A DNA stretch of 64,000 nt, from the sequence record MH051916; one strand, 5' to 3'. The position numbers and the translations under genes are program-made. Origin of the DNA: Enterobacteria phage vB_EcoM_IME340. This document shows, in pieces, positions 60,201-62,341 of this stretch; within the stretch, counting starts at the first letter, position 1, and each line of letters begins with the position of its first letter. Under the pieces are notes generated by a model that saw nothing but the letters and a program-made list of their open reading frames with translations, had not been told where the DNA came from and did not search any database.

Positions 60201-60881
60201 ATGATAGATAAAGATTATATTGCAGAGCTGAAGGCTCTTGATGATAATAAAGAAGCTAAAGCTAAATTAGCTGAATATGCTGAACAGTTTGGTATAAAGG
60301 TCAAAAAGAATAAATCTTTTGATAATATCGTTGTTGATATTGAAGAAGCCCTCCAGAAGCTCGCTAGTGAACCTATGCCAGAGACTGATGGGTTATCTAT
60401 TAAAGACTTAATCAATGCTGCTGATGCTGCAGAGGGATTAAAATATGACGATGAAGAAGTCAATCCAGAGGCAGCACTTCTGATTGATTCTCCGGTTAAA
60501 TCTGATATTAAAATTGAAGTAGTCGAAACGGATAAAATTCCTGAAAATACCGATGTTTTGATTGAAGATACTCCTTTTGTTGAAGAAAAATTCGAACAGG
60601 CTGTAGCTGAGATTATTGAATCTGAAAAGCCGTCTGTATTTACTCTTCCGGAAAACTTTAGTCCGAATCTTCAGCTGATTGGAAAAAATCCAGGATTCTG
60701 CACTGTTCCTTGGTGGATTTACCAGTGGATTGCTGAAACTCCGGATTGGAAATCTCACCCAACTAGTTTTGAACACGCGTCGGCACATCAAACTTTATTT
60801 AGCTTAATTTACTACATTAACCGTGACGGATCAGTTCTAATTCGTGAAACACGCAACTCTTCTTTCGTAACATTAAAATAA
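60201..60881 (+). CDS. inh: acidic protein at inh position (prohead protease inhibitor)
   Basis: 226 aa, position between uvsW and hoc as T4 inh. Confidence 0.6.
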   Translation: MIDKDYIAELKALDDNKEAKAKLAEYAEQFGIKVKKNKSFDNIVVDIEEALQKLASEPMPETDGLSIKDLINAADAAEGLKYDDEEVNPEAALLIDSPVKSDIKIEVVETDKIPENTDVLIEDTPFVEEKFEQAVAEIIESEKPSVFTLPENFSPNLQLIGKNPGFCTVPWWIYQWIAETPDWKSHPTSFEHASAHQTLFSLIYYINRDGSVLIRETRNSSFVTLK

Positions 60882-60890
60882 GGATAACTT

Positions 60891-62309
60891 ATGGCTTTTA
60901 CAGTTGATATAACTCCTAAAACACCTACTGGAGTTATAGATCAGACTCAGCAGTTTACTGCTACACCCAGTGGTCAAACTGGAGATGGACCTATTACATA
61001 TGCTTGGACTGTAGATGATGTTCCACAGGAAGAAACATCTGCAACTTTTAGTTATGTACTAAAAGGACCTGCTGGTCAAAAAACTATTAAAGTAGTTGCA
61101 ACAAACCCAGTTCCAGATACTGATGCTGAAACAGCTGAAATTAGTACAACTATCACAGTTCAAAATAAGACACAGACAACTACCTTAGCTGTAACTCCTA
61201 ATAGTCCTCCAGAAGGAGTAATCGGAACAGCCGTTGAATTTACTGCTGCCTTAGCTTCACAGCCATCGGGCGCATCTGCTACGTATCAATGGTACGTTGA
61301 CGGTTCTCCTGTGAGCGAAGCAACTTCTGCTACATTCAATTATACTCCTACTACAAGCGGAGTTAAAAAAATTAAGTGTGTAGCTCAAGTAACTGCGACA
61401 GATTATGATGCATTGAGCGTTACTTCCAATGAAGTATCATTAACGGTTAATAAAAAGACGCAGACAACTACCTTGGCAGTAACTCCTGCTAGTCCTGCTG
61501 CTGGAGTAATTGGAACCCCGGTTCAATTTACTGCTGCCTTAGCTTCTCAACCTGATGGAGCGTCTGCCACGTATCAGTGGTATGTAGATGATTCACAAGT
61601 TGGTGGAGAAACTAACTCTACATTTAGCTATACTCCAACTACAAGTGGAGTAAAAAGAATTAAATGCGTAGCCCAAGTAACTGCAGAAAATTACAATGAA
61701 AAGGAAGTTACTTCTAATGAAGTATCATTAACGGTTAATAAGAAGACAATGAATCCACAGGTTACATTGACTCCTCCTTCTATTAATGTTCAGCAAGACG
61801 CTTCGGCTACATTTACCGCTAATGTCACTGATGCTCCAGAAGAAGCACAAATTGCGTATTCATGGAAGAAAGATTCTTCTCCTGTAGAAGGGTCAACTAA
61901 TGTATATACCGTTGATACCTCATCTATTGGAAGCCAAACTATTGAAGTTACTGCAACTGTTACTGCTGCTGATTATGATAGCAAAACTATTACGGTAGAA
62001 GGTCAAGTTCAGGTAACTGATAAAGTTGCTCCAGAACCAGAAGGTGAATTACCTTATGTTCATCCTCTTCCACATCGTACTTCAGCTTACATCTGGTGCG
62101 GTTGGTGGGTTATGGATGAAATCCAAAAAATGACTGAAGAAGGTAAAGATTGGAAAACTGAAGATCCAGATAGTAAATACTACCTGCATCGTTACACTCT
62201 TCAGAAGATGATGAAAGACTATCCAGAAGTTGATGTCCAAGAATCGCGTAATGGATACATCATTCATAAAACTGCTTTAGAAACTGGTATCATCTATACC
62301 TATCCATAA
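60891..62309 (+). CDS. hoc: Hoc outer capsid decoration protein with an extra tandem Ig-like domain
   Basis: 472 aa (T4 Hoc 376 as I recall); tandem ~96-aa Ig-like repeats; conserved capsid-binding C-terminus. Confidence 0.85.
   Translation: MAFTVDITPKTPTGVIDQTQQFTATPSGQTGDGPITYAWTVDDVPQEETSATFSYVLKGPAGQKTIKVVATNPVPDTDAETAEISTTITVQNKTQTTTLAVTPNSPPEGVIGTAVEFTAALASQPSGASATYQWYVDGSPVSEATSATFNYTPTTSGVKKIKCVAQVTATDYDALSVTSNEVSLTVNKKTQTTTLAVTPASPAAGVIGTPVQFTAALASQPDGASATYQWYVDDSQVGGETNSTFSYTPTTSGVKRIKCVAQVTAENYNEKEVTSNEVSLTVNKKTMNPQVTLTPPSINVQQDASATFTANVTDAPEEAQIAYSWKKDSSPVEGSTNVYTVDTSSIGSQTIEVTATVTAADYDSKTITVEGQVQVTDKVAPEPEGELPYVHPLPHRTSAYIWCGWWVMDEIQKMTEEGKDWKTEDPDSKYYLHRYTLQKMMKDYPEVDVQESRNGYIIHKTALETGIIYTYP
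61164..61736 (+). repeat. tandem direct repeat (2 x ~285-288 bp) inside hoc
   Basis: units starting AATAAGACACAGACAACTACCTTAGC (61164) and AATAAAAAGACGCAGACAACTACCTTGGC (61449) are highly similar. Confidence 0.85.
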
Positions 62310-62314
62310 TCATA

Positions 62315-62341
62315 AGGGGCTTCGGCCCCTTTCTTCATTTT
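62315..62341 (+). terminator. intrinsic terminator after hoc
   Basis: AGGGGC-TTCG-GCCCCT then TTCTTCATTTT. Confidence 0.6.

Follow-up and report, generated by a model that had tools for sequence, protein, structure and literature searches.

How old is the tandem repeat in the hoc gene of Enterobacteria phage vB_EcoM_IME340 (sequence record MH051916), and is it a peculiarity of this phage? A preliminary description of the locus had read two consecutive segments of the encoded protein as the outcome of a recent duplication of one Ig-like domain, clean, little diverged and prone to recombination. Here, the repeat is characterized within the window (the whole 64,000 nt stretch of DNA that was analysed), and compared with the hoc genes of related phages.

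The hoc gene and its repeated domain

The window is Tequatrovirus (T4-like) phage DNA, and its final 24 kb are 97.0% identical to Tequatrovirus genomes (e.g., BF15 and NBG2). The hoc gene lies on the forward strand (positions 60891–62309), between inh and 24.3, in the T4-type gene order. Judging by annotated relatives, the open reading frame (ORF) upstream of hoc (226 aa) is inh and the small downstream ORFs are 24.3 and 24.2; the order inh–hoc–24.3–24.2 is annotated in the aligned regions of SA20RB, AR1 and RB3. Neighbours of hoc in the window carry the Pfam domains UvsW_N and T4_Rnl2_C, with uvsW and rnlB nearby.

Several signals surround the gene. A putative Shine-Dalgarno-like motif, AAGGA (60880–60884, forward strand), is read 6 nt before the hoc ATG, where it overlaps the inh stop codon (60879–60881); inh and hoc are tightly packed here (60879–60893). 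At the other end, a consensus scan places a terminator-like GC hairpin, AAGGGGCTTCGGCCCCTT, with a T-run behind it, 5 nt downstream of the end of hoc (62314–62331, forward strand), and terminators are annotated at the matching site 3' of hoc in SA20RB and G4507. A scan for sigma-70 promoters around hoc returned 7 sites, against 7.8 expected. On the reverse strand, a 61-aa ORF lies inside the C-terminal region of hoc (62082–62267), and AR1 has a similarly placed 'hypothetical' antisense coding sequence, without database match, just beyond the 3' end of its hoc; both antisense ORFs are probably spurious.

As the preliminary description had it, hoc is one intact ORF of 472 aa plus a stop codon. 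Its product matches T4 Hoc in the PDB (chain 5vf3_Z; phmmer, E = 6.9e-214), residues 189–472 aligning with residues 93–376 of the chain. In Pfam, the PKD family scores above cut-off (E = 5.5e-11), while Ig_2, Ig_3 and I-set give weaker matches that fall under the curated cut-offs. All 40 of the best megablast matches to the gene are single 1419 nt alignments with 93.9–95.8% nucleotide identity, and are labelled Hoc, 'PKD domain protein' or 'capsid and scaffold protein'.

In the encoded protein, four Ig-like domains precede a C-terminal capsid-binding domain, all on the forward strand. In order, these are (i) Ig-like domain 1 (D1; 60891–61166, aa 1–92), with 77% amino acid identity to D1 of T4 Hoc and an all-beta predicted structure (mean pLDDT of 84–94 per block), (ii) repeat unit 1 (61167–61454, aa 93–188), a copy of Ig-like domain 2 (D2) that we call type A, (iii) repeat unit 2 (61455–61742, aa 189–284), a copy of the same domain that we call type B, (iv) domain 3 in the T4 numbering (D3; 61743–62018, aa 285–376), which is the fourth Ig-like domain here and is 88% identical in amino acid sequence to D3 of T4, and (v) the capsid-binding domain (62019–62306, aa 377–472), which aligns with residues 281–376 of T4 Hoc. 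The Ig_3/I-set match covers residues 289–373, and domain 3 is all-beta in the structural model. The C-terminal 96 aa are almost invariant in an alignment of 26 homologues.

The additional Ig-like domain is thus a tandem copy of domain 2. T4 Hoc (376 aa; PDB 5vf3 chain Z and 8t1x) is the product of the same gene in the same genomic position, and its D2 is 94% identical in amino acid sequence to unit 2; the protein encoded in the window differs in having a further 96-aa unit, of type A, between D1 and the T4-like D2.

Independent searches recovered the repeat at the nucleotide level. A direct-repeat search of the window returned two 288 nt copies with a spacing of 288 nt and 77% identity (61155–61442 and 61443–61730), while Tandem Repeats Finder reported a period of 288 nt, 2.0 copies and 78% matches (score 726; 61167–61748). 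The two consecutive segments of ~96 aa that had been described are therefore a real head-to-tail repeat, and the location first given for them (61164–61736) is essentially right, being 3–6 nt off the units in the protein register (KTQTTTLAVTP...VSLTVNK, 96 aa each).

What does not hold is the accompanying statement that the copies are nearly identical at the protein and DNA levels. The two units share 224 of 288 nucleotides (77.8%) and 75 of 96 amino acids (78.1%); identity is retained at 83, 82 and 59 of the 96 first, second and third codon positions, respectively. Forty-nine codons differ, of which 28 are synonymous and 21 change the amino acid. The first 33 nt and the last ~40 nt of the units are nearly identical, and the longest identical runs measure 26, 22 and 14 nt (unit nt 262–287, 71–92 and 7–20). 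The similarity is nonetheless unusual for this protein: the other pairs of Ig-like domains in Hoc (D1/unit 1, D1/unit 2, D1/D3, unit 1/D3 and unit 2/D3) share 33–40% of their amino acids, as compared with 78% for the two units, and the objection that the repeat might be no more alike than any other two Hoc domains fails on these figures. Units 1 and 2 are the youngest pair of Ig-like domains within hoc.

The divergence of the units also bears on how the term 'recombination-prone' is to be understood. If it refers to an unstable phage stock, it is unlikely to apply, because the identical runs are at most 26 nt long at 78% overall identity; recombination in T4 reportedly falls steeply below about 50 bp of homology. 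If it refers to exchange over evolutionary time, it agrees with the mosaic units described below.

Age of the pair and its spread among phages

We compared the divergence between the two units with that between phages. Between units 1 and 2, the Nei-Gojobori method gives dS = 0.79, dN = 0.15 and dN/dS = 0.19, and both units are under purifying selection. Unit-to-unit dS values in five other two-copy hoc genes are of the same order (0.70–1.23). Over domain 3 and the C-terminal part, the dS between the window and eight other phages (T4, RB3, SA20RB, HP3, G4507, PinkRuby, PhiZZ23 and HX01) is 0.07–0.28; the divergence between units is 3–10 times deeper.

Comparison of individual units leads in the same direction. 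When 19 units from 12 phages are compared pairwise at the nucleotide level, identity is 83–92% among first units and 85–99% among second units, whereas units 1 and 2 of one and the same gene are 72–82% identical; that is, each unit is closer to its orthologues elsewhere (83–99%) than to its immediate neighbour. Unit 1 of the window is 83–92% identical to the first units of other phages and 87% identical to the single D2 of HX01. Unit 2 is 97%, 95% and 92% identical to the single D2 of RB3, PhiZZ23 and T4, respectively. Since first units resemble first units, and second units resemble second units, across phages, two positional types can be distinguished; the units group by position (A first, B second) rather than by phage, and the split between types A and B is older than the divergence of the sampled hoc alleles. 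Both units lie equally far (54–55% at the amino acid level) from domain 2a of the Hoc of Mosigvirus LNA2, and the A/B split therefore postdates that divergence.

The spread of the two-copy form was estimated from (i) record span and number of alignment pieces in evenly sampled rows, (ii) a junction probe, and (iii) protein clusters at 90% identity. With the whole gene as query, 594 records by megablast and 549 by tblastn reach a coverage of ≥80%, but these counts are unusable as a census, because in single-copy genes two pieces on one subject unit get joined; T4, for example, reaches 100% coverage over a span of 1131 nt. Among 60 records sampled at even spacing from the 655 that match, 14 have a long, single-piece hoc, and the remainder, including T4, T6 and RB3, span about 1131 nt. 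The junction probe consists of 288 nt (the 3' half of unit 1 joined to the 5' half of unit 2), only half of which is matched by single-copy genes such as that of T4. It is covered to at least 80% in 238 records, 27 of 31 sampled records being single-piece; a few single-copy records (H189 and H199–H201) still reach this coverage, as two pieces. From the sampled rows, we estimate that true A-to-B junctions are present in about 200 phage records. A three-unit hoc (1707 nt, 568 aa) is matched over its full length, in one piece, by at least 14 records, with ESh36, YUEEL01, T4_ev151 and UGKSEcP1/2 among its carriers.

Protein clusters give a similar picture of stepwise lengths. In a collection of 5.8 billion proteins, 889 match Hoc at E ≤ 1e-20. 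Among the best 120 clusters, Hoc is 376 aa long in 77, 472 aa in 29, 468 aa in one and 567–570 aa in nine; the 472/468-aa class comprises about 444 member sequences. The comparison of Hoc lengths across relatives that had been suggested thus reveals genuine variation (376 aa in T4; 376, 472 or 567–570 aa overall), and within Tequatrovirus length changes in steps of 96 aa (376, 472, 568).

These data can be set against a recent duplication in this phage or its immediate ancestors, which predicts barely diverged copies and length heterogeneity in the stock. The excess similarity of the two units over the other Ig-like domains of Hoc, and the single unit of T4, would fit such an event. A young duplication should, however, leave copies that are near-identical at synonymous sites and that are each other's closest relatives, and neither is the case: 64 of 288 nucleotides differ at a dS of 0.79, orthologues in the same position in other phages are 83–99% identical, about 200 records share the junction, and no identical run exceeds 26 nt. 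The two-copy genes in the databases differ from each other by 4–14%, which excludes that they are copies of one recent event. We consider a recent origin very improbable; neither the word 'recent', nor the impression of a feature peculiar to this phage (29 of the best 120 clusters are 472 aa long), survives the comparison.

An error of assembly, by which a single D2 unit was wrongly expanded to two, can also be dismissed. Tandem repeats can be mis-assembled, but reads from these units would be placed unambiguously because the units differ at 22% of positions. Furthermore, the hoc reading frame is intact, and many laboratories have independently obtained the A-B arrangement in their assemblies, which number in the hundreds.

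Taken together, we consider it highly probable (about 0.88) that hoc in the window is the common two-copy allele of an Ig-like domain whose copy number varies in Tequatrovirus, and that its A and B types are old.

Unit types, mosaic units and the origin of the pair

Types A and B are distinguished by 31 diagnostic nucleotide sites. Unit 1 of the window carries the A state at 30 of these, and unit 2 the B state at all 31. Single-copy genes fall on either side or in between: HX01 (a Mosigvirus whose hoc resembles that of Tequatrovirus) has one type-A unit, the single units of RB3 and PhiZZ23 are of type B, and the single D2 of T4 begins as B (as far as nt 213) and continues as A (nt 233 onwards). 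Hence, the domain 2 of T4 itself resembles a recombinant between the two types. In the ESh36 triple, the middle unit is likewise B-then-A, and switches in the same interval (nt 213–233) as the D2 of T4. Patches of type A are also found in the second unit of HP3 and the third unit of ESh36.

At the protein level, the types differ in two variable patches, at about residues 45–55 and 77–84 of the unit, and all four A/B combinations of these patches occur among single-copy clusters. Among two-copy clusters, the arrangement of the window, AA-BB, is the commonest (16 clusters), and nearly all multi-copy clusters have a first unit of type A; these counts are approximate, because splitting of the units by regular expression mis-assigned variant linkers (KKEQTT; clusters P0031 and P0004). 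Whole-unit length alleles, and chimeric units of the kind predicted for crossover products, are what is expected of a copy-number-variable, in-frame repeat, and both are present.

A route by which units could be gained and lost is suggested by the boundaries between domains. All three Ig-Ig junctions of Hoc read N or K followed by K-T, encoded as AA(T/A/G) followed by AAGAC(A/G). Unequal crossing-over at these conserved linkers, or at the conserved unit ends, would lengthen or shorten the gene by exactly 288 nt without disturbing the frame, and a B-then-A middle unit would be the expected product of an unequal crossover between two A-B genes. Ig domain 2 thus exists as two old types, and a gene may hold one (376 aa), two (472 aa) or three (567–570 aa) units; purifying selection maintains both copies of the two-unit form, and most of their differences fall in predicted loops. 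As to the direction of change, the second unit may have been present from the start and lost in some lineages, or it may be a later gain.

A different account of the pair is that A and B diverged as single-copy D2 alleles in separate lineages, and were only then joined by unequal recombination at the linkers during mixed infection. Single-copy genes of type A (HX01), of type B (RB3 and PhiZZ23) and of chimeric type (T4) do exist, the variable patches occur singly in every combination, and a type-A unit has been placed after D1 in a Mosigvirus-like Hoc (cluster P0048). The dS between A and B (0.79) is also deeper than that of the flanking parts of hoc (0.07–0.40). The single A and B forms, however, could equally well have arisen when an A-B pair lost sequence by deletion across its conserved ends, and the predominance of type A in the first position of multi-copy clusters is compatible with one common ancestor under either model. 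Duplication followed by divergence and losses, and the merger of already diverged alleles, are both possible histories; on balance, we regard the merger as the less probable, though worth serious consideration.

The P0048 chimera just mentioned (567 aa, 24 members) combines D1 of Tequatrovirus and a type-A unit with domains 2a, 2b and 3 of a Mosigvirus (LNA2-like) Hoc, and suggests domain shuffling between genera.

The predicted fibre and other hoc records

An AlphaFold2 model of the product, built with 26 homologues, contains four all-beta domains over residues 1–376, with mean pLDDT values of 84–96 in 10-residue blocks as far as residue 370, and with pLDDT below 50 in the C-terminal domain. 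In a Foldseek search of the PDB, the top matches consist of four consecutive Ig domains, namely Sidekick-2 Ig1–4 (E = 4.4e-13), ICAM-5 D1–D4 and Dscam1. Of the 21 amino acid differences between units 1 and 2, 15 lie outside the predicted strands (Fisher p = 0.014), and they cluster at unit residues 46–58 and 78–84. Given that the differences are mostly outside strands, the two units have a core in common and unlike surfaces.

Differences that cluster in loop patches of a surface-exposed, Ig-like domain raise the question of whether the two copies serve as template and variable repeat in a system of targeted diversification, for instance a diversity-generating retroelement. There is next to no chance of this. 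The mismatched positions of unit 1 comprise 19 A, 17 C, 16 T and 12 G, and this spectrum, in which adenine bias is absent, rules out the domain as a retroelement target. In addition, transitions and transversions are equally frequent (32 each), over half of the differing codons (28 of 49) are synonymous, both units are coding and in frame, and the patches recur as discrete A and B haplotypes across phages. T4-type phages are not known to carry a reverse transcriptase.

T4 Hoc has three Ig domains in 376 aa (PMC9958956; PMC10385173) and forms a 180 Å fibre, the Ig domains being followed by a C-terminal anchor (PMC10385173). Because the C-terminal anchor is unchanged in the window, its Hoc is expected to occupy the same seat as T4 Hoc, so that each fibre would be held at the centre of a capsid hexamer; binding would be to the centre of gp23 hexamers in the mature head, with one molecule per hexamer. 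Assuming the linear domain arrangement of T4 and RB49, the fibre would be one Ig domain, or roughly 40–50 Å, longer than that of T4, and would present domain 2 in two versions whose surfaces differ. The longer capsid fibre proposed in the preliminary description is, to this extent, a fair expectation from one extra Ig-like domain.

It is conceivable, but in our view rather doubtful, that domain 2 is more than a passive length polymorphism and acts as a cassette system, in which one to three in-frame units reassort A and B loop patches (about unit residues 45–58 and 77–84) in every combination. If true, phages could in this way tune or broaden the binding of the fibre (to mucin glycans or cell surfaces), or escape antibodies, Hoc being an immunodominant protein; the two-copy A-B form might then be kept for showing both loop sets together.

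Several relatives share the arrangement of the window. The 472-aa Hoc proteins of PinkRuby, SA20RB, AR1, HP3, G4507, ime09, phiD1 and PP01 have the same five domains in A-B order, the closest being those of PinkRuby (97.0% amino acid identity) and SA20RB (95.8% nucleotide identity); Tequatrovirus proteins of this length differ from that of the window only by point differences and small mosaic patches, while AR1 has a T4-like D1 sequence that is 2 aa longer. The 568-aa Hoc of ESh36, YUEEL01, T4_ev151 and UGKSEcP1 is built from the same unit family, linker and flanking domains, and has one more 96-aa unit. In ESh36 (a Shigella phage; ON528746.1), the three-unit hoc occupies 10–1716 of the examined locus and encodes 568 aa.

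More distant phages have arrived at additional domains in other ways. The Hoc of Klebsiella phages W14-4 and PMBT63 (468 aa; PMC13435897) has, like that of the window, one Ig domain more than T4. In the Jiaodavirus W14-4 (PP312927.1, 301–1704 of the examined locus), the tandem pair spans aa 189–281 and 282–374, with about 77% amino acid identity between copies, and the protein as a whole is about 48–50% identical to the Hoc of the window; this duplication is an independent event, since it is domain 3, and not domain 2, that is paired. Serratia phage Muldoon has a 1174-aa Hoc with 10 Ig domains (PMC10385173), which shares the string of Ig domains of variable number on a conserved C-terminal anchor, but has far more domains and is 38.7% identical over the aligned parts. 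The Hoc of Mosigvirus LNA2 (471 aa; MZ311865.1, 301–1713 of the examined locus) also has four Ig domains; the two in the middle share no more than 43% identity, so its extra domain is older or of separate origin.

Variation in the number of Hoc Ig domains is already published. Fokine et al. (2023) surveyed 650 Hoc homologues, most of which retain the string of Ig domains, 1 to 10 in number (PMC10385173), and a 2026 paper describes the 468-aa Klebsiella phage Hoc with its additional Ig domain, noting that domain number varies widely (PMC13435897). In the literature searched, we found no explicit account of the A/B cassette pattern, or of the series of one, two and three units, in Tequatrovirus; the A/B pattern is a refinement of what has been described, and not a new kind of feature.

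For the window itself, the repeat has little significance: the allele to which it belongs is well populated and annotated, Hoc is a decoration protein that is dispensable and has been studied in depth, and the arrangement is ordinary because the copies are 78% alike and the old allele is common to roughly 200 phages. More generally, the steps of 96 aa in Hoc length bear on phage display and vaccine scaffolds, and on comparisons of mucus adherence among T-even phages, including therapeutic phages. The locus is also a convenient natural series of one, two and three units for asking how adhesion depends, if at all, on the length of the fibre or the type of loop.

Some other hoc records deserve mention. 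In phage T2 (LC348380.1), the hoc region measures 1117 nt (301–1417 of the examined locus), as compared with 1131 nt, and contains two short hypothetical coding sequences (428–781 and 859–1284), the longest frame being 172 aa. Given the short region, the split coding sequences and the short longest frame, the T2 hoc looks disrupted; T2 virions are reported to be without Hoc. T4-type hoc genes with 89–95% identity are found in records named 'Staphylococcus phage SAJK-IND' (32 kb) and 'Pseudomonas phage vB_PSGBLB0006', the RefSeq taxonomy line of HP3 reads Rosemountvirus, and a cluster of 472-aa Hoc (P0030) is named 'endonuclease [Shigella sonnei]'; the labels on MG010123.1, PV654520.1, NC_041919.1 and P0030 look wrong. 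Finally, many Hoc clusters bear the name 'PKD domain-containing protein [Escherichia coli]', and Hoc sequences labelled as Escherichia coli presumably represent phage DNA in bacterial assemblies.
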